Source: an uncultured Chromatiales bacterium (lineage in GTDB: Bacteria; Bacteroidota; Ignavibacteria; SZUA-365). Taken from it: 64,000 nucleotides of DNA. The DNA is taken from positions 3,232-67,231 of the forward strand of contig CAYLZD010000020.1 of assembly GCA_964388275.1 (NCBI GenBank), written 5' to 3'. A model generated the notes under the pieces. The model was not told the DNA's origin and did not search any database. It saw only the letters and a program-made list of their open reading frames with translations. The position numbers and the translations under genes were made by a program. This document shows, piece after piece, positions 2,931 through 64,000 of this stretch. Each line of letters opens with the position of its first letter. The stretch's first letter is position 1.

Positions 2931-3983
2931 ATGTCAATCAACATTCAAGAACTGCTGGGCCAAGACGCGGAAAACCTCCTTTCTTTCGACAAGCCTCGCG
3001 TTCCGAAGGAATCGCTGCACCTCCCCGGACCCGATTTTGTGGACAGGATCTGGAAGGACAGCGATCGCAGTCCGAGGGTGCTGGTCAATCTTCAGCGCAT
3101 ATACTCCTCAGGCCGTCTCGCCGGCACCGGATACATGTCGATACTCCCCGTCGATCAGGGCATAGAACATTCGGCGGGCGCCTCCTTCGCGCCGAATCCG
3201 GCGTATTTCGATCCCGAGAATATCGTCCTCCTGGCGATGGAGGGCGGCTGCAACGCGGTTGCGAGCACGCTCGGAGTGCTCGGATCGGTGGCGAGACGCT
3301 ATGCTCACAAGATACCCTTCCTAGTGAAGATCAATCACAACGAACTGTTGACCTATCCGAACAAGCACGATCAGATACTCTTCGCTTCCTGCGAACAGGC
3401 GGCCGACATGGGCGCGGCCGCGGTGGGCGCCACCATATATTTCGGTTCGGAGGAATCCGCGAGGCAGATCGTGGAAATCTCGGAGGCCTTTTCCTACGCG
3501 CATGAACTCGGTCTGGCCACCGTCCTGTGGTGCTATCTGCGGAATCCGGCTTTCAAAACCGACAAGGACTATCACGTATCCGCCGACCTGACCGGACAGG
3601 CCAATCATCTCGGCGTGACGCTGGAAGCGGATATCATAAAACAGAAACTGCCCGAAAACAACGGCGGCTACAACGCGCTGTCCTTCGGGAAGACCAGCAA
3701 ACTGGTGTACGACAAGCTCACGAGCGGGCATCCGATAGACCTCGCCAGATACCAGGTGGTGAGCTGTTACATGGGCAGGGCGGGCCTTATCAACAGCGGC
3801 GGCGCGTCGTCGGGCGCCGCGGACACGGCCGAAGCCGTGAAAACGGCCGTGATAAACAAAAGAGCCGGAGGCCAGGGACTCATTTCGGGACGCAAGGCGT
3901 TTCAGCGTCCCATGAAAGAAGGGGCGGCGCTCCTGAACGCGATTCAGGACGTCTATCTGTCGCCCGAAGTAACCATCGCCTGA
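2931..3983 (+). CDS. fbaB: Class I fructose-bisphosphate aldolase
   Basis: [44 protein letters not shown]; 350 aa as in FbaB. Confidence 0.95.
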
Positions 3984-15521: not shown

Positions 15522-15552
15522 TTGCGCCAAACGAACCATCCTGCTATCTTTG
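15522..15552 (+). promoter_or_regulatory. Promoter of tRNA-Thr
   Basis: TTGCGC (15522-15527), 17 nt, TATCTT (15545-15550) with TG extension; also reads TATCTTTG, matching Bacteroidota TAnnTTTG. Confidence 0.65.
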
Positions 15553-15560
15553 TTCGCTAT

Positions 15561-15633
15561 GCCATCCTAGCTCAGTTGGTAGAGCAGCTCACTCGTAATG
15601 AGCAGGTCGTCGGTTCGAGTCCGATGGATGGCT
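15561..15633 (+). tRNA. tRNA-Thr (anticodon CGT), CCA not encoded
   Basis: Full 73-nt cloverleaf: acceptor GCCATCC/GGATGGC, D arm GCTC/GAGC, anticodon arm GCTCA-CTCGTAA-TGAGC, T loop TTCGAGT. Confidence 0.98.
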
Positions 15634-15643
15634 CGGAATATGG

Positions 15644-15670
15644 ACAGCCCCTCGCGGGCTGTTTTCATTT
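15644..15670 (+). terminator. Intrinsic terminator after tRNA-Thr
   Basis: ACAGCCC-CTCGC-GGGCTGT followed by TTTCATTT. Confidence 0.75.
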
Positions 15671-52407: not shown

Positions 52408-54012
52408 ATGACGACTCGGAAACGCCGTAAGTCGGCCGCCTTCATCCTCAGCATCATCCTCATCCCGTTTTCCGCAGCCGCATACGGGCAGGCTGGGCCT
52501 GAATCTTTCGGTTTGAACAAGATCGTTTCGAGCGGCGGCACGCGTCCTCTCAGCAACAGCGCCATCGACATGCTCGCGCGCGGCGACAGCATTTGGATCG
52601 CCGGGGGCAAGGGATTGGACCTCACGACGGACGGCGGCCGTTCATGGCGTCACTTGGGCGAAGAAGCGCCTTTCGATCTCGAGGACATAGCCGCGCTGGA
52701 TGCGCACGGATCCGTGATCTGGGTCTCGCTCGCGGGCTCCGAGAAACTCGACGACGGATCCACACTGCCGAAAGGACTGGGCCTCGCGGTGTCCACGGAC
52801 AACGGCGCTTCCTGGACTCGGATCGAACAACCGCAGGAAGCGGTCGGCGACTCGACTTTCGAGATCATGTACGGCGCGAACCGCATAAAAGGCCTGGCGA
52901 TCACGACGCCCATAAACAACATCACTTACGATATCGCGGTCACCTCCCGCGCCGTATGGACGGCGAGCTTTGCGGGAGGACTTCGAAAATCCTCCGACGG
53001 AGGCCGCACGTTTTCACCCGTCCTGTTGCCGGGCGACAACCTGGACTCGATAAGGGACACAGATACGCTGAACTTCGAACTTTCGCCGGTCGACCGTCCG
53101 GATCTCTGGAATCAGGGCGGCACATCTAAAGGCATGCGAGGCAGTCTCAACCATCGTGTGTTCTCTCTGTATGCGGAGGATGACACGACACTCTGGGTGG
53201 GCACGGCGGGCGGGATCAATCTCACAACGGATGAAGGGCGTTCATGGCGCAAATTCACGTATGCCAATCAGAGTTTTCCGATATCGGGAAATTTTGTGGT
53301 GGCTCTCGGAAGCAATACCATCGACGGCTCGCGACGCCTGTGGGCCTCGACGATCAACGCGCTGGAGCCGCAGGAATTCCGCTCCGTCAGCATGACCTCG
53401 GACCGGGGGGCGACCTGGACGAACGCGCTGAGGGGAGAATTCACGCATAATTTCGGATTCAAGGGTTCCGTGGTCTACGCGGCCACGAATTCGGGCGTAT
53501 TCCGTTCCGACGACGCTGGGCGTACGTGGACGCTGCACGACGTGTTCGTCGATCCGATATCGCGCAGCCGTTCCGTGGATCCGCGATGCTATTCAGCGGC
53601 CGTGCTCGGCGACACGGTCTGGGTGGCCAATGCGGACGGACTGATGACGACGGTGGATTCCCGGGATCGCTTTTTCGGATCCTCCTGGTCGCTCAAGCGC
53701 GCTGCTCGTCCTCCGGATGCGGACGGCATGGCGTATGCCTATCCGAATCCTTTCACTCCCGCGAATGACGTCTGCCGCGTGAGATACAGAACGGACGCCG
53801 CCGGCACGGTCAGCATCGACGTTTTCGATTTCGCGATGTATCCGGTGCGCGCATTGTTGAGAAACGCCGCGAGGCCTGCGGATACGGAATTGGACGAGAT
53901 CTGGGATGGAACAGACGACGGCGGGCAGCGTGTCGCCAACGGACTCTACTATATCCGGGTTCAAGCGGGAAACCGGGATGCCGCGTGGACCAAGGTGGTG
54001 GCGCTGCAATGA
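52408..54012 (+). CDS. Secreted BNR/Asp-box beta-propeller with FlgD-Ig-type CTD
   Basis: Repeated S/T-x-D-x-G-x-S/T-W boxes; C-terminal YAYPNPF..WDGTDDGG..VANGLYYI. Confidence 0.85.
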   Translation: MTTRKRRKSAAFILSIILIPFSAAAYGQAGPESFGLNKIVSSGGTRPLSNSAIDMLARGDSIWIAGGKGLDLTTDGGRSWRHLGEEAPFDLEDIAALDAHGSVIWVSLAGSEKLDDGSTLPKGLGLAVSTDNGASWTRIEQPQEAVGDSTFEIMYGANRIKGLAITTPINNITYDIAVTSRAVWTASFAGGLRKSSDGGRTFSPVLLPGDNLDSIRDTDTLNFELSPVDRPDLWNQGGTSKGMRGSLNHRVFSLYAEDDTTLWVGTAGGINLTTDEGRSWRKFTYANQSFPISGNFVVALGSNTIDGSRRLWASTINALEPQEFRSVSMTSDRGATWTNALRGEFTHNFGFKGSVVYAATNSGVFRSDDAGRTWTLHDVFVDPISRSRSVDPRCYSAAVLGDTVWVANADGLMTTVDSRDRFFGSSWSLKRAARPPDADGMAYAYPNPFTPANDVCRVRYRTDAAGTVSIDVFDFAMYPVRALLRNAARPADTELDEIWDGTDDGGQRVANGLYYIRVQAGNRDAAWTKVVALQ

Positions 54013-55094
54013 ACGGCGAGCTGTTGACAGGCATAGGCGCCATGCGGAAGCAATCCATTACCGCGGCCCGAAATCCGGAAAGAAGTGCGGTAGCATCGCG
54101 CGTGTGGTTCGTCATCGCCCTGTTGACCTTTCTCGCGGTTTCCCTGGAAGCGCAGCCCGGCGGCAGAGCCGGAGCGTTTACGCGCCTCGGTTTCGGCGCG
54201 AGGGGACAGGGCATGGGCAACGCTCTAACGGCGGTCAACACCGGGCACATTACAACCGTGTACAATCCGGCTCTTTCGCCCTTTCAGAAGAGCAGGCTTC
54301 TTTACGGCAGCTACGGCATGCTCGCTCTCGACCGCAAGCTGAACCAGATCTGTTACATTCAACCGATACGCATCGAGAAAAAGGGCGCGAACAAATACGC
54401 CGAGGATCCCGACGCGCAATCCCTGGCCGGCGTTTCGGCAGGCTGGATCAACGCCGGGGACGCGGACGTTCAAGGATACGACAGCGACGGATTCAAAACC
54501 GAAATGCTCAGCGTATTCGAGAACCAGTTCTACCTGAATTTCGGCACTCGCTTCAGCGAGAGACTCTCGGTGGGTTTCAACGCGAAGTTCTATTACTCCG
54601 GCCTGTATCGCGACGTGACAAGCTCCGGTTTCGGAATAGATCTGGGAGCGCTTTATCAGTTGGCGGATGGCCTGACCGTGGCCGTTGTCCTGCAGGATCT
54701 TCTCACGAAGTACAAATGGGATACCGGGAAGCTCTACGGTCCCGAGCAGGGACGCGCCACTGAAGACGCTTTTCCCCTGATCACGCGCCTGGGCGCGGCT
54801 TACATGATTGACCTCATGGGAGGCCTCCTTATCGCCGCCGATATGGAGCTGTTCGACGGCGGCGCGCCGCTTGCCCGGATAGGAGGAGAACTGCGCCTGG
54901 CGGAGCAGTTCTCCGTCCGCGCCGGCGCCGACCGCATCGATCTGGGAGGTTCCGGAATCGACGCCAGGCCTTCCGCGGGCGTCTCATTCTCGCAGCCGGT
55001 CGCGTCATTGCGCCCGGAAATACAGTATGCCTTCATTCTCGAGCCCGTTGCGCCGTCGCCCACTCATGTGCTTTCGTTCTTACTTTCGTTCTGA
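54009..55094 (+). CDS. PorV/UPF0164-family outer-membrane barrel, paralog 1
   Basis: GFGARGQGMGNA..YNPA N-terminal motif, GFGIDLGALY, C-terminal Phe. Confidence 0.78.
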   Translation: MNGELLTGIGAMRKQSITAARNPERSAVASRVWFVIALLTFLAVSLEAQPGGRAGAFTRLGFGARGQGMGNALTAVNTGHITTVYNPALSPFQKSRLLYGSYGMLALDRKLNQICYIQPIRIEKKGANKYAEDPDAQSLAGVSAGWINAGDADVQGYDSDGFKTEMLSVFENQFYLNFGTRFSERLSVGFNAKFYYSGLYRDVTSSGFGIDLGALYQLADGLTVAVVLQDLLTKYKWDTGKLYGPEQGRATEDAFPLITRLGAAYMIDLMGGLLIAADMELFDGGAPLARIGGELRLAEQFSVRAGADRIDLGGSGIDARPSAGVSFSQPVASLRPEIQYAFILEPVAPSPTHVLSFLLSF

Positions 55095-55095
55095 C

Positions 55096-56019
55096 ATGAA
55101 GATTCATAGAAGATTATTTGCATCCGCATTTTTAATCCTGCTGCCCGCCGCTTTCTCATCGGCACAACCCGGCGGCACGGGCATGGCATTCCTTCGCAAC
55201 GGCGTCGGCGCCAGAGCAGTGGCGATGGGGGAGACCGGCGTCGCTGGATCCTCATTCGGAGAAGTTCTCTATTACAATCCGGCAATGGCGGCTGTATCGG
55301 GAAACTCCTCGCTGACCATCATGCACCAGCAGGCGGTGCAGGACCTTCATTCGCAATATCTCGGCGCTGTTGCCGCATTGGACGGCTGGTCGCTGGGATT
55401 GCACATACACCTCGCGAGCATTGAGGATATCGAGGCGCGCGCTCTGCCGGGAGACCCGGAAGGCATGTTCACGTCCCGCAATTTCTCCCTGGGATTCACC
55501 GCCGCGTATCGACTGACCGAGAGGATATCCCTGGGCGCCAACGCCAAATTTCTTTTTGAAAAAATCTATGTGGACGATGCGAGCGGATACGCGTTCGATC
55601 TCGGCATTCGAGCGCTCCCGTTCGGTCAAGGACCGCTGGAGAGCCTGTCCTTCGGCGTCGCCGTCTCAAACCTGGGCGCAATGAGCGATTTGAAGACCGT
55701 GTCTACCAAACTGCCTGTCCTGATTCGGGGCGGCTTCGCATATGATTTGCCCATCGAGACAGGCCGGGCGAAAATTTCGGCGGCCGCCGAGGGCGTCTAC
55801 CATCCTTCCGACGAGAGATTCAGGGCGCATCTCGGGGCGGAAGCGAGTTATGACGAACTTCTCGCCCTGCGGGTCGGATATCAGACCGGTTTCGACATCA
55901 AGGGATTTTCCGCCGGAGTCGGTTTCATCCTCTCCCCCGCGCGCTTCGATTACGCTTTCGTGCCCTACAGCGAGAACTTCGGGACGGCGCATTCCTTTTC
56001 GGTGTCGCTCATCTTTTAA
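55096..56019 (+). CDS. PorV/UPF0164-family outer-membrane barrel, paralog 2
   Basis: GVGARAVAMG..YYNPA, AFDLG, SNLG, LALRVGY, AGVGF, DYAFVP, C-terminal Phe. Confidence 0.82.
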   Translation: MKIHRRLFASAFLILLPAAFSSAQPGGTGMAFLRNGVGARAVAMGETGVAGSSFGEVLYYNPAMAAVSGNSSLTIMHQQAVQDLHSQYLGAVAALDGWSLGLHIHLASIEDIEARALPGDPEGMFTSRNFSLGFTAAYRLTERISLGANAKFLFEKIYVDDASGYAFDLGIRALPFGQGPLESLSFGVAVSNLGAMSDLKTVSTKLPVLIRGGFAYDLPIETGRAKISAAAEGVYHPSDERFRAHLGAEASYDELLALRVGYQTGFDIKGFSAGVGFILSPARFDYAFVPYSENFGTAHSFSVSLIF

Positions 56020-56040: not shown

Positions 56041-57177
56041 ATGCGCGCGCGCATCGGCATTGCGGTAGTCGGCGACGTCAGGCGCGATTCACGCTGTCTG
56101 CGCATGGCCCGCACGCTGGCGGAGGCCTACGAAACGACGGTTTATTCGCTGGGAGATGAAGCGGAGAGTTTTTCGGACGGCCAGGTCCGTCATATCGTTC
56201 TGCCCCGTGCGGACGCATCGGATCTGCGGGCCTCGCTCCGCGCGTTCTGGAAGGAGAATCCGGGCGGGAGGGGCGGATCAGCGGACATCTGGCTGGCCGG
56301 CGACCTCTACTCGCTGCCTCTGGCTTCGCGCATGGCCCGGCGTCAAAGAGCCGCGCTGCTGTATGATTCGCGCGAACTGTATCCCTACATCGCAGCCCTG
56401 TCCGGCCGGCCTATCAGCCGGTTCTACTGGCGCTGGATGGAACGGCTGCACGCCGGTCGCGCCTCGGTGATCTTCGCGGTGAACGACTCGATTGCGGAGC
56501 GCCTGAGGAGGCGCTACCCACGCATTCCGGTCGAAGTGCTGCGCAATTACCCGGATTGGGAAAGACCGGAGAAGGCGCGGGATCTGAGAAGTTTGTTCGG
56601 CATTCCTGACTCGGCAGTGATACTTCTCTCGCAGGGCGGTCTGCAGCGCGGAAGGGGAGGGGAAGCTTGCCTGCGCGCATTGCTACGTCTGGATAACTGC
56701 GCGCTCGTGTTTCTCGGCTCCGGCGCCGAGGAAGCCGGATTGAGATCGCTCGCATCCGAACTGGGTGTGGGTGAGAGGGCGCATTTTCACACCGCGGCGA
56801 CGGCGGAGGAACTGCCTTCCTACACGACCGCGGCGGATATAGGACTCTGCATCATAGAGAACCTGGGTGAGAGCTACTATCTATCGTTGCCGAACAAGCT
56901 TTTCGAGTATGCCGCCGCCGGTCTCCCGGTCGTCGCCAGCGACTTTCCGGAAATCCGCAAAGTCGTGCTCGGCGAGAAACTGGGCCTGCTTGTGGATCCG
57001 GGCGATGAGAACGCGCTGGCCGACGCCCTCAGACATCTCGTGGAAGATGCGCGCGCTCGCGACCATTTCCGGGCCAACGCGATCCGCGCCTCCGCCCGCC
57101 TGAACTGGAGTACGGAAGGCGCCCGCCTGCTGGTCACGACCGCGGATTTGCTCCGCCGCCGGGCATCGATCCGATGA
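56041..57177 (+). CDS. GT4-family glycosyltransferase
   Basis: DSRCLRMA, LYDSRE, YQGG-like SQGG, LPNKLFEYAAAGLPVVASDFP. Confidence 0.88.
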   Translation: MRARIGIAVVGDVRRDSRCLRMARTLAEAYETTVYSLGDEAESFSDGQVRHIVLPRADASDLRASLRAFWKENPGGRGGSADIWLAGDLYSLPLASRMARRQRAALLYDSRELYPYIAALSGRPISRFYWRWMERLHAGRASVIFAVNDSIAERLRRRYPRIPVEVLRNYPDWERPEKARDLRSLFGIPDSAVILLSQGGLQRGRGGEACLRALLRLDNCALVFLGSGAEEAGLRSLASELGVGERAHFHTAATAEELPSYTTAADIGLCIIENLGESYYLSLPNKLFEYAAAGLPVVASDFPEIRKVVLGEKLGLLVDPGDENALADALRHLVEDARARDHFRANAIRASARLNWSTEGARLLVTTADLLRRRASIR

Positions 57178-57192
57178 GCCGGGAGCCGGCTG

Positions 57193-58074
57193 TCAGCCCG
57201 GCGCGGTTTCGTCGTCTCCGATGGCTTCGAGCAGCATCGCTTCCTTTGTTTCCGGCAGCTTGGCGAGTCTGACAGAGCGCAGCACCAGCTCGCGGTACAG
57301 ATCGACCAGCCCGGGAACATACTCGCGCTGGAGTTCGAGATGCTTGCGGATGGTATCCGCGTCTCCTCGGGCAACCGGGCCGGTCAGCGCAGCTCGCGGC
57401 GAATTCTGTTCTATGCCGTTAAGGACTCCCAAGATCATCGGCGCCAGATGCTCGAAGGCGCCGCCGTCAGTGGACTCCTCAAGCAGGTCGAGGGATTCCG
57501 CTATAAGCGAAGTAATGAAATTACCGGCGAAAACACAGGCGAGATGATACAGGGGCTTCAGCTCCTTTCTCACCATGATCGGCTTCCAGCCGAGAAAATC
57601 CGCGAACTCCCGGCCCGAGGCGAGGAAATCTCCGTTCCCTTCGAGCCCGCAACCGATCCCTTCAATCCTCGAGATGTCGACATAGTAAGATGGAAAAGAC
57701 TGAATAGGATGCATGGATCCGATGATTGCTCCCCGAGAGGCGAGGGGCAGAAGCTCGTCGGCGGTCCTGATGCCGGAAGTGTGGGCGACGAAGACGCCGT
57801 CGAGTGGGTGATCGATGCGGGATAATTCTTCCGCGGCGCCTGAAATTTCGCCGTCCTGCACACAGATTATGAAACAGCGCGGGACGCTTTTCAGAGCTCC
57901 GGGCGAAGGCGAGAAGCCATCGGCGAATACCGCGGAGCGCGCTCTTTCCAGCTTCATCTCGTCCCGGTCGACAACGGCCGACACCGTCAAGCCCCGGCTG
58001 TAAAGGAAGCGGCTGATCGTGCATCCGACATTGCCGGCGCCGATCACGCAGACTCTGTGATAGAATGGAATCAC
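57193..58074 (-). CDS. Rossmann-like / DUF2520 oxidoreductase
   Basis: VIGAGNVG, VAHTSG, SMHPIQSF, YHLACVFAGN, ALTGPVARGD..TI..H. Confidence 0.88.
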   Translation of the reverse strand: MIPFYHRVCVIGAGNVGCTISRFLYSRGLTVSAVVDRDEMKLERARSAVFADGFSPSPGALKSVPRCFIICVQDGEISGAAEELSRIDHPLDGVFVAHTSGIRTADELLPLASRGAIIGSMHPIQSFPSYYVDISRIEGIGCGLEGNGDFLASGREFADFLGWKPIMVRKELKPLYHLACVFAGNFITSLIAESLDLLEESTDGGAFEHLAPMILGVLNGIEQNSPRAALTGPVARGDADTIRKHLELQREYVPGLVDLYRELVLRSVRLAKLPETKEAMLLEAIGDDETAPG

Positions 58075-58922
58075 CGCGGCCCTCCTTCGTCCGCCGCGCC
58101 CCGCAGGAAAGCCGCGGACAGATAACCGACTACTTTTGATCTGTCCCCGCTCGCGTCGCCCGAGTTCGAGGTGCGGAGTATGAGCGCCTTGTCCGCTCCG
58201 AGCAGCATGGCCGCGTGCATCACGGCACAGACCGGGCCTCCGCCGCAGGCTTCGGTCCTGTGAGCCGACAGGTCCTTGAGCAGTCCGGATACGGACATCC
58301 CGAGTATATGCCGCTCGGCGATAGCATCGAGCCGGCGCGCCTCGGAGTCGTCGTGCATATGCGAAAGGTCGGACGAGGCGATGAGGATCGTTTCATCCCC
58401 ACCGGCCGACTCGGCGAGTATGCGGCCCAGCATGAGGCACATTTCCCCGCCCTGATCGCCCATGCAAACCGGCAGGATGCGCGCGTCGGGATTCACTCTT
58501 TGCAGGAAAGGCAAGTGGACTTCGATGGCATGCTCGCCTCGATGTCCGAAACACGACGGCGTCAGCAGGCCTTTGTTGCGAAGCAGGCGGTTCCGCATGT
58601 CCGCGTCCACCTCCACTATTCCGAGAGGCGTTCGGTAAGCGTCGCCGTCGTAAATCGATATGCCGTTGAAACTCTCGCAGTGGCTCGGGGCAACGATGAC
58701 GGCCGTGTTGAAGCGGCGCCGGCGCAACAGTGCATAGGCCGCGCCCGCGGTCCTGCCTGAATAGATGTAACCCGCGTGCGGAGCGACCAATCCCAGCACG
58801 GTTCCCTGAAGAACGGCCTGCTCCTGTTCTTCAAGGAAGGCGTCGACCTGCAGCGCCAGAAGCGTCGGGTCCGAGGGATAGAATCTGCCGCTGACGGCGG
58901 GTGGGCGTATCCGCATCATCAT
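58071..58922 (-). CDS. amrB: AmmeMemoRadiSam system protein B (MEMO1 family)
   Basis: RPPAVSGRFYP, VAPHAGYIYSG, APSH, EHAIEVHLPFL, ASSDLSH, CGGGP. Confidence 0.93.
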   Translation of the reverse strand: MMMRIRPPAVSGRFYPSDPTLLALQVDAFLEEQEQAVLQGTVLGLVAPHAGYIYSGRTAGAAYALLRRRRFNTAVIVAPSHCESFNGISIYDGDAYRTPLGIVEVDADMRNRLLRNKGLLTPSCFGHRGEHAIEVHLPFLQRVNPDARILPVCMGDQGGEMCLMLGRILAESAGGDETILIASSDLSHMHDDSEARRLDAIAERHILGMSVSGLLKDLSAHRTEACGGGPVCAVMHAAMLLGADKALILRTSNSGDASGDRSKVVGYLSAAFLRGAADEGGPR

Positions 58923-59512
58923 GCTTCTCCAGCAGTCGCGATACCGTTTCTTTCAATGCCGGACAGCACTCTCGCTCCGAAGCGATGCAGGCGCGTTTCG
59001 GGTTGGCGCCAGGCGTGATCCGGCAGTCCGGCCTTCCTGCAAGCCGCGCAGAGAAACTGCTCCTGATCCCAACCTTGTTCGGTGGCCACCTTGGGCAGCA
59101 GCAGCCCCCGGCGCATGCCCTTTTCGACCAGGATGCCGTGTTTTCCGACGACGATTTCGGTTGGAGAAACGAAGGGCGACATCGGTTCCAGCAGGGTTAT
59201 CTCGAAGCGCATGAGCTTCAGCTCCGTCGAAAGCAGGGGCTCGAAGCGCAGATCGCGTGATGCTGCGTCGCCCGCCGCTCGCAGAACCGCGCCACCCAGA
59301 GGCATGGCGGGATCAAGCACTCCAAGGCAACCCCGGAGTTTTTCGTCCACGTAAATCGTGACGAAAACTCCATTGTGCGGCAACATATCGACCTCGGACT
59401 TGAGGATCTCCATTGCGCTCGTCAGGCGTCGCGAGGCCGCGGCGCCTGAGGCGGCTTGCGATATTGCCAGACCCGCCAGTTGAACCAGGCTTTTCAGTTC
59501 ATCTTCCTTCAT
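58919..59512 (-). CDS. amrA: AmmeMemoRadiSam system protein A (AMMECR1 family)
   Basis: GVFVTI, LRGCLG, GKHGILV, GLLLP.VA.EQGW, CRKAGL; ATG at 59512 (TTG at 59518 possible). Confidence 0.88.
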   Translation of the reverse strand: MKEDELKSLVQLAGLAISQAASGAAASRRLTSAMEILKSEVDMLPHNGVFVTIYVDEKLRGCLGVLDPAMPLGGAVLRAAGDAASRDLRFEPLLSTELKLMRFEITLLEPMSPFVSPTEIVVGKHGILVEKGMRRGLLLPKVATEQGWDQEQFLCAACRKAGLPDHAWRQPETRLHRFGARVLSGIERNGIATAGEA

Positions 59513-59606
59513 GTTCAATGAGGTTTATCGCCGGTGGCGTCCAAAAAGTAACATATCCATTTTCGCGCCTTTTCGCAATCCGCGGGAAAGGGCATGCAGA
59601 TTTCGG

Positions 59607-59636
59607 TTGTTTATATTTTCACTTCGCTCTATTTTG
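59607..59636 (+). promoter_or_regulatory. Sigma70-type promoter directly upstream of the structured RNA
   Basis: TTGTTT (59607-59612), 17 nt, TATTTT (59630-59635); predicted start near 59642-59643. Confidence 0.55.
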
Positions 59637-59642
59637 AGACAA

Positions 59643-59819
59643 GGGCAGAGCGCCTGGAGTGACGATGCCCCGAAAACCGCGTAAAGCGGTCCGATATACG
59701 GCTGTAATTCGCTGATTACAGGAACGGCGGCTGCATTAAAACCCGGCGGGGTTCTATATCCCGCTTAGGATATCCATTAGCAGCACCTCTTCGGTCGCAG
59801 CCCGGCAGACGGGCTTTTT
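59643..59819 (+). ncRNA. Structured non-coding RNA, 6S RNA-like rod (alternative: leader/attenuator)
   Basis: Nested pairings 59643-59661/59784-59803, 59667-59672/59747-59752, 59686-59691/59729-59734; apical CTGTAAT/ATTACAG; side hairpin ATATCC/GGATAT; own promoter and terminator. Confidence 0.6.
59799..59819 (+). terminator. Intrinsic terminator ending the structured RNA
   Basis: AGCCCG-GCAGA-CGGGCT followed by TTTT. Confidence 0.75.
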
Positions 59820-59894
59820 ATGTAAAAATCAAACAATCGAGAAATATCCAACGAATTCAATGAATTTCTTTCGCTCCTAAAGAGGATTTCCATC

Positions 59895-62516
59895 ATGAAA
59901 AGAACCTTACGAAAATTCATGTTACTGACGCTGTCAGCTCTATTCGCCCTCGCCTTGCCGGATATGACTTCGCTTTTACTGGGAACAGGCGATCAACAGT
60001 CCGCAGGCAAACGCCCTCGCCGCGCGGAAAGAGCGCCTCTCATGCGCGAGTACTTCTACGCGCAGAGGTTGTTCGGCTGTCCCGACGCCGACATTATCGG
60101 CCGCACCATGTATGAAGCCGAGAGGATGCGCATCGAGGAGAAGCGGCTGAACAAGGCCACGCTTCCGGGCAATATTTGGATAGAGGAGGGGCCGTGGAAC
60201 ATAGGCGGCCGCATGCGCGCCATCGCGGTGCATCCCTCGAATCCGAACGTCGTGTATGCCGGCGCCGCTTCAGGAGGCATCTGGAAATCCAACGATTTCG
60301 GTGAAAACTGGCTTCCGATCGGCGACAACATTCCCATACTGCCGGTGGGCGCCATTGCGATCGATCCAAACAACCCGGCCCGCATCTACGCCGGAACCGG
60401 CGAACCGGTGGCCGCCGGTTATCAGGGCGGGAGCTACGTAAACGGGCGCATCAACGCCTCGCCGGTCTGGAGCACGGGCGCCGGTGTGATGCGTTCCGAC
60501 GACGGCGGGCTCACATGGACGCAGAAAAGCTGGAACAGTCCGTTCGCCGTTCATAGAATCGCGGTGAGTCCGGACGGCGGAGACACGGTGTTCGCCGCGA
60601 GCATAAACGGTCTCTGGAAAACGACGAACGGCGGCGACAATTGGTCGCGCACGTCCACCGGAATAATAACCGACACCAAGATCAAGCCGGGCCAGTCCGG
60701 CCGCGTATATCTGGCTATCGGCAACGACGACGGCGACGGCGCGAACGGAGTGTACGTGTCCGATGCAGGCGGCCGCTCGTTCTCCTGGAGAAAGATCTCG
60801 GTCAATTTCCCGGCGCCGGATTCCTGCGGGCGCATTCTGCTCGACATATCACCCGCCGATCCCGACAGGATATACGCCGCCGTCGCGCGCAGCCACAAGA
60901 CCCTCGCAACCCGTGATAACGACTTCCTTCTGCTCATGGTATCGACGAACGGCGGAGATACATGGGAGAGGAAGATCAACGCCATCAGCACAGGATTCCC
61001 CAACGGGCAGGCCTACTACGATCTCGCGCTGGCCGTCTCGCCGTCGGACCCGAACGTCGTGTTCCTCGGCGGCTTGGACGTGTATCGCAGCACCAACGGG
61101 GGCGGCAGCTTCGTGCGCATGACGCGCAGCGACGTCCCGTACACCGACTCCCGTTACGTGCACGTGGACATCCATCATTTCGCTTTCAAACCGGGCGATC
61201 CGAATACGATCATGGTCGCCAACGACGGGGGATTCAGCGTTTCGACGAATCTCGGCGTGGGCTGGTCGCGCCGCGTCAACAACCTGGGCACCGTCCAGTA
61301 CTATTCCTGCAACTACGATCCGGGCAATCCGACATATTTCTTCGGCGGGACGCAGGACAACGGCACGCACGGGAAGTTCAGCAACGACAACGCGGCCTGG
61401 TACGAGCTGTTCGGCGGAGACGGAGGCAGCGTCGTGGTGGATCCGGCGAAACCGACGGTCAGGTACGTGAACTCGCTGTACAGCAATCCCTCTGGAAGCG
61501 GATACATACGTCCGATAATCCGCCTCGGCGTCGGAAACGCCACGGTGCTGGGCACCGGACTCAACAGCGGAGAAAACGCCGACAGGTTCACCTGGGTGCC
61601 CCCTCTCATGTTCCATCCGACGGACAGGACTCGTCTGTACACGGCCACCCAGTACGTTTACACGATGCGGAATCCGGACGTCGGCACGAACCCGCGCTGG
61701 AACATCATCAGCCCAGAACTCGGACTCATAGTCACCAGGCTCGCCGTGGCGCCTTCACAGACGGATCGGATGTACGCGGTCACATCCAACGGCTGGGCAT
61801 GGGTGACCAACAACGTCACGTCGACCTCGCCGACCTGGACCCGCGTCATCACCGGACTGCCGTCGCGTTGGCTGACCGACCTAGCCATCGACGGAAGCAA
61901 CGCGGATCTCGCATATGTGACAGCGTCCGGCTACGGAGCCGGACACGTGTTCAAGACCACGAACGCGGGACAGGCCTGGACCAACATCAGCTCGAATCTG
62001 CCGGACCTTCCCGCCAACGCGATAGAAATATCCCGGTCCGATCCGAACACGCTTTTTGTCGCGACCGATATCGGCGTCTACTACACGGTGAACGGCGGCG
62101 CGTCCTGGCAGAGATTCGGCGACGGCCTGCCGAATGCCATCGTTTACGACATGGTGCTGACACCGCAGAACAAACTCCTCGCCGGCACTTTCGGCAGGGG
62201 CATGTGGACGACGGACGCTGTGGTCTCGGCCGGAGACCTGCCGCAGGCGGGAGCTATATCTCTCGGACAGTGCTACCCGTCGGCCGCGCGCTTGTCCACG
62301 ACGATACCGTTCTCGCTCACGCGCCGGGCTTCCCTGTCCCTGAAGCTGTACGACGTCAATGGACGCTTCGTCAAGGCGCTCGGCGAAGGAAGCTTCGGTG
62401 CCGGCAATCATTCGATCGACGCGCGTGTCGCGGATCTGGCGCCGGGAATGTACTACTATCGGCTGACGGCGGGCGGTGGTTTTGAGCAGACCCGCAAGAT
62501 GCTGGTCGTCCGCTGA
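59895..62516 (+). CDS. Secreted VPS10/BNR-type double beta-propeller protein with T9SS-type CTD
   Basis: GPWNIGGRMRAIA, many S-x-D/N-G-G-x-x-W boxes, VHVDIH, GGTQDNGT, GDGG; CTD LYDVNGRFV..LAPGMYYYRL..TRKMLVVR. Confidence 0.88.
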   Translation: MKRTLRKFMLLTLSALFALALPDMTSLLLGTGDQQSAGKRPRRAERAPLMREYFYAQRLFGCPDADIIGRTMYEAERMRIEEKRLNKATLPGNIWIEEGPWNIGGRMRAIAVHPSNPNVVYAGAASGGIWKSNDFGENWLPIGDNIPILPVGAIAIDPNNPARIYAGTGEPVAAGYQGGSYVNGRINASPVWSTGAGVMRSDDGGLTWTQKSWNSPFAVHRIAVSPDGGDTVFAASINGLWKTTNGGDNWSRTSTGIITDTKIKPGQSGRVYLAIGNDDGDGANGVYVSDAGGRSFSWRKISVNFPAPDSCGRILLDISPADPDRIYAAVARSHKTLATRDNDFLLLMVSTNGGDTWERKINAISTGFPNGQAYYDLALAVSPSDPNVVFLGGLDVYRSTNGGGSFVRMTRSDVPYTDSRYVHVDIHHFAFKPGDPNTIMVANDGGFSVSTNLGVGWSRRVNNLGTVQYYSCNYDPGNPTYFFGGTQDNGTHGKFSNDNAAWYELFGGDGGSVVVDPAKPTVRYVNSLYSNPSGSGYIRPIIRLGVGNATVLGTGLNSGENADRFTWVPPLMFHPTDRTRLYTATQYVYTMRNPDVGTNPRWNIISPELGLIVTRLAVAPSQTDRMYAVTSNGWAWVTNNVTSTSPTWTRVITGLPSRWLTDLAIDGSNADLAYVTASGYGAGHVFKTTNAGQAWTNISSNLPDLPANAIEISRSDPNTLFVATDIGVYYTVNGGASWQRFGDGLPNAIVYDMVLTPQNKLLAGTFGRGMWTTDAVVSAGDLPQAGAISLGQCYPSAARLSTTIPFSLTRRASLSLKLYDVNGRFVKALGEGSFGAGNHSIDARVADLAPGMYYYRLTAGGGFEQTRKMLVVR

Positions 62517-62625: not shown

Positions 62626-64000
62626 ATGAAGATGAAAGGACCGATTCTGTTTACCTGCGCAGCGGCGCTGTTCCTGCTCTTCGCGCCGGATTCCGGCCGC
62701 GATGCATCGAGCAGAGATTCCGGAAGCGCGGCGGTTGAGGAATCGCCGGAGCAGCTGAAGTATTTCTATGAAATGCGCCTTTACGGCGATCCTGATATCG
62801 ATCCGTATCAGCGCCTATGGCAAGCCGCGCTCGATCCGCGCGTCCGCGATCAATTTTCGATGAAGAAATCCAACCTCTCGCTTATGAATCAGTGGGAATG
62901 CGCGGGACCGGTCAACATTTCCGGCAGAGTCAGAGCTCTGGCCGTCCATCCGGCCGACAACAATGTCATCTATGCGGCAACAGCCACCGGAGGAGTCTGG
63001 AAAACCACGAATTCCGGCGCCGACTGGTTCCCTATGTCCGACAACACCCCCGCGCTGGCCTCGGGCGCCATCGCCATCGACCCTTTCGATCCGAATACGA
63101 TCTATGTCGGAACCGGCGAGCCTATCGGTCTGAGTTCTCCGTCGCACAGCAGGGCATCTCCCGCATACAGCGGGGTCGGAGTGCTGAAGAGCACGGACGC
63201 TGGCGGCACCTGGGAACTACTGCCCTGGTCGAGTTCGAGCAGCATGATTCACCGCATCGCGCTGCATCCGGAAAATTCCGATACCGTCATGGTCGCTTCC
63301 ACTTCAGGCCTGCTGAAATCGACGAACGCGGGCCGGAACTGGTCGAGCGTGCTCTCGGGCACGGTGACGGAGCTTTTCTACGCCCCCGGCCGCCCGTCCC
63401 GTATTTATGCCGCCCTAGGCAACGACAACGGGGCGTCTTCGAACGGAGTGTATGTGTCGGACGCGGGCGGAAAGAATTTCTCCTGGGTCAAGCTCACCAA
63501 CAACTTTCCGCGAGGTGATTCCACCGGTCGCATAATACTCGCCGTTGCTCCGTCAGATCCGAACCGGCTCTATGCGGCCGTCGCGCTCAGACGCGGCCTG
63601 ATTTCCGGCAGCAACGGCTTTTTCATGGTGTGCGTGTCGAGCGACGGGGGCGAGACCTGGCAGAGAAGACCGGGCGCCATCCCGCGGAATTTCACGAACT
63701 ACATGCCTTATTATTGTCTCGCCATGAAAGTGTCTCCTGTCGATCCTGATTTCGTGATGCTGGGCTCCGTCGACTGGTGGCGCAGCACGAACGGCGGGCT
63801 GAACTTCGTCCGCAACACCGACTGGTCCCTGCGGACCTCCAATCCGAACAGCCCGCGCTACGTGCATGCCGACCAGCACGACCTGGTCTTCAAGCCGGGC
63901 GATCCGAATACGATGATAGTCGCGAGCGACGGCGGTGTTCATCTCTCGACCAATAAGGGCGATACCTGGACGATGCGCACATTCGGGATGATAACCACTC
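62626..64000 (+). CDS. Tandem paralog of the preceding propeller protein, runs off the window end
   Basis: Not in the ORF track. AGGAG SD; manual translation MKMKGPILF..GPVNISGRVRALAVHP..GGVWKTTN..VGTGEP..SDAGGKNFSW..GDSTGRI..YVHADQH..FKPGDPNTM..SDGG. Confidence 0.88.
   Translation, partial: MKMKGPILFTCAAALFLLFAPDSGRDASSRDSGSAAVEESPEQLKYFYEMRLYGDPDIDPYQRLWQAALDPRVRDQFSMKKSNLSLMNQWECAGPVNISGRVRALAVHPADNNVIYAATATGGVWKTTNSGADWFPMSDNTPALASGAIAIDPFDPNTIYVGTGEPIGLSSPSHSRASPAYSGVGVLKSTDAGGTWELLPWSSSSSMIHRIALHPENSDTVMVASTSGLLKSTNAGRNWSSVLSGTVTELFYAPGRPSRIYAALGNDNGASSNGVYVSDAGGKNFSWVKLTNNFPRGDSTGRIILAVAPSDPNRLYAAVALRRGLISGSNGFFMVCVSSDGGETWQRRPGAIPRNFTNYMPYYCLAMKVSPVDPDFVMLGSVDWWRSTNGGLNFVRNTDWSLRTSNPNSPRYVHADQHDLVFKPGDPNTMIVASDGGVHLSTNKGDTWTMRTFGMITT

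Follow-up and report, generated by a model that had tools for sequence, protein, structure and literature searches.

Leaders that pair a terminator with an antiterminator are known as transcription attenuators and as the expression platforms of 'ON' riboswitches, for example the pbuE/ydhL adenine riboswitch. Attenuators of the leader-peptide type (trp/his) depend on the ribosome for antitermination, and the polysaccharide loci of Bacteroides carry long 5' leaders that need UpxY/NusG-like processive antitermination. In the Bacteroidota the consensus of sigma-A promoters consists of TTTG at -33 and TAnnTTTG at -7.

Here we analyze a candidate structured RNA in a 64-kb stretch of DNA (64,000 nucleotides, hereafter the window) with a G+C content of about 62%. 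We assign the window to an uncultured bacterium of the FCB group because the closest database relatives of one of its secreted propeller proteins are metagenome-assembled genomes labelled Bacteroidota, Ignavibacteria, or Ignavibacteriae. An earlier note on this DNA had proposed that positions 59607-59819 encode either a divergent 6S RNA or an unannotated cis-regulatory RNA. We suggest instead that a tandem propeller operon has a long, lineage-specific 5' leader of about 252 nt and that the segment would be the promoter-proximal portion of this leader. Among the available explanations, an attenuator leader with termination as its default fits best; we put it forward tentatively, since it falls somewhat short of being probable.

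Results

The segment sits in a 382-nt gap that separates two divergent gene sets. The minus-strand set contains AMMECR1 (58919-59512), Memo (58071-58922) and a DUF2520/Rossmann gene. The plus-strand set opens with the first of two tandem propeller genes of the BNR/Sortilin type, secreted by the type IX system (T9SS). It spans 59895-62516, encodes 873 amino acids matching Pfam Sortilin-Vps10 and Por_Secre_tail, and its homologs align from residue 1; the second propeller gene, also on the plus strand, starts at 62628. In four lineages a GT4 glycosyltransferase gene is followed by DUF2520/Rossmann, Memo and AMMECR1, and two tandem T9SS propeller genes diverge from this set (56041-62516 onward in the window); the arrangement is conserved although the propellers are only 52-67% identical. 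In the related loci (L005, L006, and L007/L008) genes for ferritin and for an MFS/PTR2 transporter come after the propeller pair, and neither there nor in the window does a radical-SAM (AmrS) partner lie beside AMMECR1/Memo. T9SS-related genes are abundant in the neighborhood, given that another BNR/Sortilin-type propeller protein of 534 amino acids (52408-54012) is encoded 6 kb upstream, with a PorV/PorP-like outer-membrane protein (55027-56019) after it. The 17 neighboring open reading frames annotated in 42.8-63.5 kb include no regulator or NusG-like gene.

The earlier note had placed a -35/-10 pair just before GGGC at 59643, and this was borne out. The promoter of the propeller operon (59607-59636, plus strand) is of the Bacteroidota -33/-7 type, as indicated by its sequence, its conservation and its likeness to a tRNA promoter. 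It is composed of TTGTTT (59607-59612), a 17-nt spacer and TATTTTG (59630-59636), and ends 6 nt short of GGGC, so that transcription would start at about 59641-59644. The layout, TTG-N20-TAttTTG, is one T short of the Bacteroidota consensus, and a scan with the sigma-70 consensus did not call this site. The only tRNA gene of the window (15561-15633) has a promoter at 15522-15552 with the exact Bacteroidota consensus, TTG-N20-TATCTTTG, and downstream of the gene lie a short G+C hairpin and a T-run (15645-15661), which together offer an in-genome reference for how promoters and terminators look. The propeller and tRNA promoters share the layout TTG-N20-TAnnTT(T)G, which is that of the Bacteroidota sigma-A -33/-7 type.

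Alignment of five sequences from four lineages (the window, L004, L005, L006, and L008) revealed that TTGT.TTT-N13-TCTAT.TT is invariant; both motifs are thus found with the right spacing at orthologous positions, and the location of the promoter ahead of the propeller gene is fixed across the four lineages. Judged by this conservation, the promoter is real, ancient and a property of the propeller operon. Upstream of it, the alignment with L004 delimits a conserved intergenic block (59549-59606, no strand assigned). The divergent promoter of AMMECR1 is probably located in this block, on the minus strand, where TTGCGA-17-TATGTT was picked out by eye. Identity between the window and L004 is 97% in the stretch 59564-59623 and 86% across the alignment as a whole, and their similarity falls off at the inferred transcription start.

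The U-tailed terminator of the earlier note also held. A terminator scan, ensemble folding and simulation all point to an intrinsic (Rho-independent) terminator on the plus strand at 59799-59820, between the promoter and the propeller start codon. It consists of AGCCCG-GCAGA-CGGGCU followed by T5, that is, a 6-bp stem with five G-C pairs and a 5-nt loop, and GCCC at 59800-59803 belongs to its 5' arm, as had been claimed. Its folding energy is -10.8 kcal/mol, compared with -9.6 for the hairpin after the tRNA gene, and its pair probability is about 1. When a strict terminator is defined by five perfect G-C pairs and T5 within one base of the stem, criteria that were set after seeing the site, this is the only one in 64 kb. 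Simulated sequence contains 0.23 strict terminators per 64 kb and about 0.001 per 252-nt leader, a large margin despite the post hoc criteria.

Beyond the terminator, the distal leader (59821-59894, 74 nt, plus strand) carries a ribosome-binding site, AGAGGA, at 59881-59886. Inspection of its sequence showed no TAnnTTTG-type motif, and hence expression of the propellers probably needs read-through. An inverted repeat of 17 nt (13/17 matching; 59603-59619 and 59824-59840) has one arm at the -35 region and the other at the bases immediately past the terminator. Since its left arm is ancestral promoter sequence including the -35 box, this repeat is probably due to chance and not a transposon end. 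A mobile-element origin of the segment was rejected on the same ground, together with its single copy in the window and the lack of plasmid or phage similarity.

Both the minimum free energy (MFE) structure and the centroid of the leader consist of local hairpins lined up within a multibranch loop. The first of them, H1 (GGGCA...UGCCC, 59643-59670, plus strand; pair probabilities 0.79-0.94; -11.1 kcal/mol), encloses a Shine-Dalgarno (SD)-like GGAG and the AUG of a small open reading frame, and its 5' arm GGGCA is retained in L004. Three adjacent plus-strand hairpins occupy 59676-59721 with pair probabilities of 0.78-0.99, namely ACCGC/GCGGU (59676-59690), CCG/CGG (59691-59701) and CUGUAAUU/GAUUACAG (59702-59721). 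They are followed by a longer hairpin on the same strand (59730-59784; 0.86-0.98) with an outer GCUGC/GCAGC and an inner GGCGGGGU/AUCCCGCU stem. The local hairpins listed in the earlier note, ACCGC/GCGGT among them, are therefore present in the folding and pair probabilities. The ATATCC/GGATAT hairpin at 59756-59773 can indeed pair, but it uses the same bases as the inner stem GGCGGGGU/AUCCCGCU, is mutually exclusive with it and loses to it (-4.8 vs. -12.7 kcal/mol).

The long nested rod that had been described gave way to this string of hairpins. Its GGGC/GCCC closing stem has 4 bp and an ensemble probability of 0.0005, and forms only when the 3' arm of the terminator is withheld; forcing it incurs a penalty of 4.8 kcal/mol and the result is still a multibranch loop. 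The 183-nt fold has z = -1.53; of 200 shuffled sequences, 17 fold equally well, and the reverse complement reaches -66.3 kcal/mol (z = -1.51). As modeled, then, the leader fold has neither excess stability nor a strand signal; the stems are plain Watson-Crick palindromes and so convey no strand information.

The mutual exclusivity of closing stem and terminator had also been proposed. It recurs in a slightly longer form as a helix, 59643-59654/59792-59803, that ties up the 5' arm of the terminator in silico. The 3' strand of this candidate antiterminator helix (59792-59803, plus strand) overlaps the terminator 5' arm. The helix comprises nine interrupted pairs (4+3+2 bp) and is the MFE solution only if the terminator 3' arm is unavailable, as is the case during transcription; the corresponding fold has -59.4 kcal/mol, 6.4 worse than the terminated one (-65.8), and an equilibrium probability of 0.0005. 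By these predictions the alternative helix is weak, and chance readily yields helices of this kind and trivially yields a 4-bp GGGC/GCCC match such as the one within it. The only small open reading frame of the leader (59665-59715, plus strand) has 16 codons (MPRKPRKAVRYTAVIR) and a GGAG 5 nt upstream of its ATG; its start overlaps H1, and in this one sequence it lacks a regulatory codon run.

To place the segment among described RNAs, we compared it with the 4227 families of Rfam 15, using the 64 kb at the gathering score and 59450-59950 (501 nt) at E<=10 with permissive filters. The first search returned tRNA only. The second gave no match to a 6S model or any relevant family, and matched no described riboswitch aptamer or leader family. 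Two sub-threshold matches, an 18-nt fragment of ROSE_2 (E 8.3) and sR5 (E 7.8), are noise. ARAGORN found no tRNA or tmRNA at the element, and the literature on AmmeMemoRadiSam and on Ignavibacteria 6S RNA yielded nothing relevant. The stretches CCGAUAU and UUAAAAC, which the earlier note ascribed to Escherichia coli 6S RNA, are consistent with the sequence, but two shared 7-mers are about what chance would give. Between two 180-nt sequences 174 x 174 / 4^7 = 1.85 are expected, and the matches consequently carry no weight.

Leaders were compared across the syntenic loci of the nearest relatives available, with the start assumed 8 nt after the -7 box. The leader is about 252 nt long in the window and contains the terminator. 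It measures about 185 nt in L005 (propeller identity 67%), about 80 nt in L006 (56%) and about 62 nt in L008 (52% for L007/L008); in these three the sequence is unrelated and has no terminator, and that of L005 folds with z = -0.68. The L005 leader contains a 58-codon upstream open reading frame (3648-3824) whose stop overlaps the propeller start codon (ATGA). The syntenic intergenic regions of L005, L006, and L008 are without the element, about 10 kb having been searched per relative. The distal 74 nt of the window leader are about as long as the complete leaders of L006 and L008, and for this reason an insertion of about 180 nt fits. The simplest history would be that about 180 nt were added between the old promoter and the old short leader in one lineage.

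All copies of the element that were recovered are 100% identical; look-ups with the exact proteins led to the intergenic copies of L001-L003, which come from independent samples. Searching with AMMECR1 gave one 84%-identical relative (L004), on a contig of 1179 bp that ends 11 nt into the element. Neither the full propeller protein nor its N-terminal 200 amino acids retrieved a relative between 67% and 100% identity. Scans of genome contigs returned no relative with the AMMECR1 protein and five loci with the propeller alignment, none closer than 65%. A promoter 19-mer gave 13 chance matches in metagenome contigs, a collection that does not include the source samples; a 28-mer of the element gave none, and a promoter/5'-end pattern one chance match, inside an Elusimicrobia reading frame. 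A single-sequence covariance model of the element matched nothing in L004-L008 or L024-L026, whether or not filters were applied, and there is no second copy in the window. On the evidence of these searches, the element is not conserved beyond roughly the genus level and is confined to one narrow uncultured Ignavibacteria-like lineage.

Discussion

We propose that transcription from the conserved Bacteroidota-type promoter would start at about 59643 and would stop by default at the terminator, producing an RNA of about 178 nt, with the propeller genes expressed only upon read-through. The most likely route to read-through would be the helix 59643-59654/59792-59803, which may tie up the terminator 5' arm in competition with H1. 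Because H1 encloses the SD and AUG of the 16-codon open reading frame, a ribosome or another factor that opens it could favor antitermination. A ligand, a protein, or ribosome occupancy of that reading frame might each act as the trigger. The cis-regulatory half of the earlier proposal survives in this form as a proposal only, with a conserved promoter, a terminator, no second recognizable promoter and an alternative pairing in silico on its side. That termination occurs, that it is conditional and that this particular switch is used are what the model would predict. In support of the attenuator, sequence comparison indicates that in relatives without the insert the conserved promoter drives the propeller gene directly. 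Against it, the predicted fold is no better than shuffles and equally good on the opposite strand, and the closest relatives with the same operon manage without the element.

These same observations favor the next reading, in which the segment has no dedicated RNA function. About 180 nt of essentially neutral leader growth would contain ordinary hairpins, and the terminator would be a leaky constitutive damper or simply tolerated. The z of about -1.5 on both strands, the absence of the element from all more distant syntenic loci, the lack of any family match and the long yet unrelated L005 leader, which implies that leader length drifts in this group, all agree with such a history. It is difficult to reconcile with a perfect G+C stem and immediate T5, which are very improbable by chance in 252 nt, and a terminator placed between the start codon of the operon and its sole recognizable promoter would be expected to exact a cost if it had no use. 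We regard neutral growth as a possible but rather doubtful account.

Less plausible still, and in our judgment unlikely, is a free-standing gene for a trans-acting small RNA of about 178 nt, with the propellers transcribed by occasional read-through or from an unrecognized promoter. Promoter and terminator do bracket a unit of typical small-RNA size between divergent genes. However, in relatives the same promoter serves the propeller gene and is followed by a short leader, no copy or relative of the unit was found elsewhere in the window, the related loci or the public collections searched, and it is without a known target.

Alternatively, the palindromes might act as DNA, with CTGTAAT-N6-ATTACAG, ATATCC-N6-GGATAT and the clustered ATATCC serving as operators for a repressor or activator bound downstream of the start site, a scenario that we consider improbable. 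The stems are almost pure Watson-Crick palindromes, such that folding is equally good on either strand. Five copies of ATATCC lie in some 300 nt (59553-59849) and 42 in the whole window, where 18.4 +/- 4 are expected from shuffles. Nevertheless, AT-rich hexamers are expected to cluster in AT-richer intergenic DNA, no regulator gene is adjacent and the choice of motif was post hoc. The 8-bp palindrome GGATATCC is present five times in the 64 kb, and beyond the intergenic region the positions noted for these motifs are 1525, 13390, 48053 and 55523; it or ATATCC could be a protein-binding or methylation motif. Equally improbable is the most far-reaching version of the attenuator, a new and narrowly distributed 'ON' antiterminator RNA that responds to a ligand, a protein or translation and that was recently inserted to gate propeller expression.

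Finally, the reading as a divergent 6S RNA, which would sequester RNA polymerase by mimicking open promoter DNA, is effectively refuted in silico. Although about 178 nt falls in the 6S size range and two 7-mers noted by the earlier reader are common with E. coli 6S, none of the Rfam models matches at either threshold, hairpins in a multibranch arrangement are predicted in place of a rod, the closing stem almost never forms, nothing occupies the syntenic site in relatives, the shared 7-mers are at chance level and the element lies inside an mRNA leader.

The main value of the analysis is accordingly negative: the segment is not the 6S RNA of this organism, nor a member of any described RNA family. 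Should the terminator be conditional, the leader would represent a rare case of an attenuator gained recently within the FCB group, for which regulation by RNA is poorly charted, and it would hint at the conditions under which the abundant, uncharacterized T9SS propeller proteins are made.

How does the leader compare with known systems? With 6S RNA (RF00013 and the flavobacterial 6S family) it shares only a size of about 178 nt and a 3' end defined by a terminator; model match, rod, stable closing stem and conservation are all missing, and it is located in an mRNA leader. The resemblance to the UpxY-dependent leaders of Bacteroides resides in the FCB group itself, the Bacteroidota-type promoter and a long leader before genes for surface or secreted products, whereas the 17 open reading frames include no NusG-like gene, no ops-like element was identified and the genes downstream do not form a capsule locus. 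Relative to trp/his attenuators, the leader has no regulatory codon run and the stop of its small open reading frame is about 85 nt from the terminator; in common with them it has a 16-codon reading frame with GGAG near the 5' end, whose SD and AUG lie in a hairpin that competes with the antiterminator. Unlike leaders of the pbuE/ydhL type, it has no conserved aptamer or family match, and its alternative helix is short and interrupted. It is like them in being a promoter-proximal leader with an intrinsic terminator upstream of the genes that would be regulated, and in having a helix between its 5' end and the terminator 5' arm that is predicted to exclude the terminator. The leader is thus an ordinary kind of feature that is unique in sequence and belongs to a single uncultured lineage.
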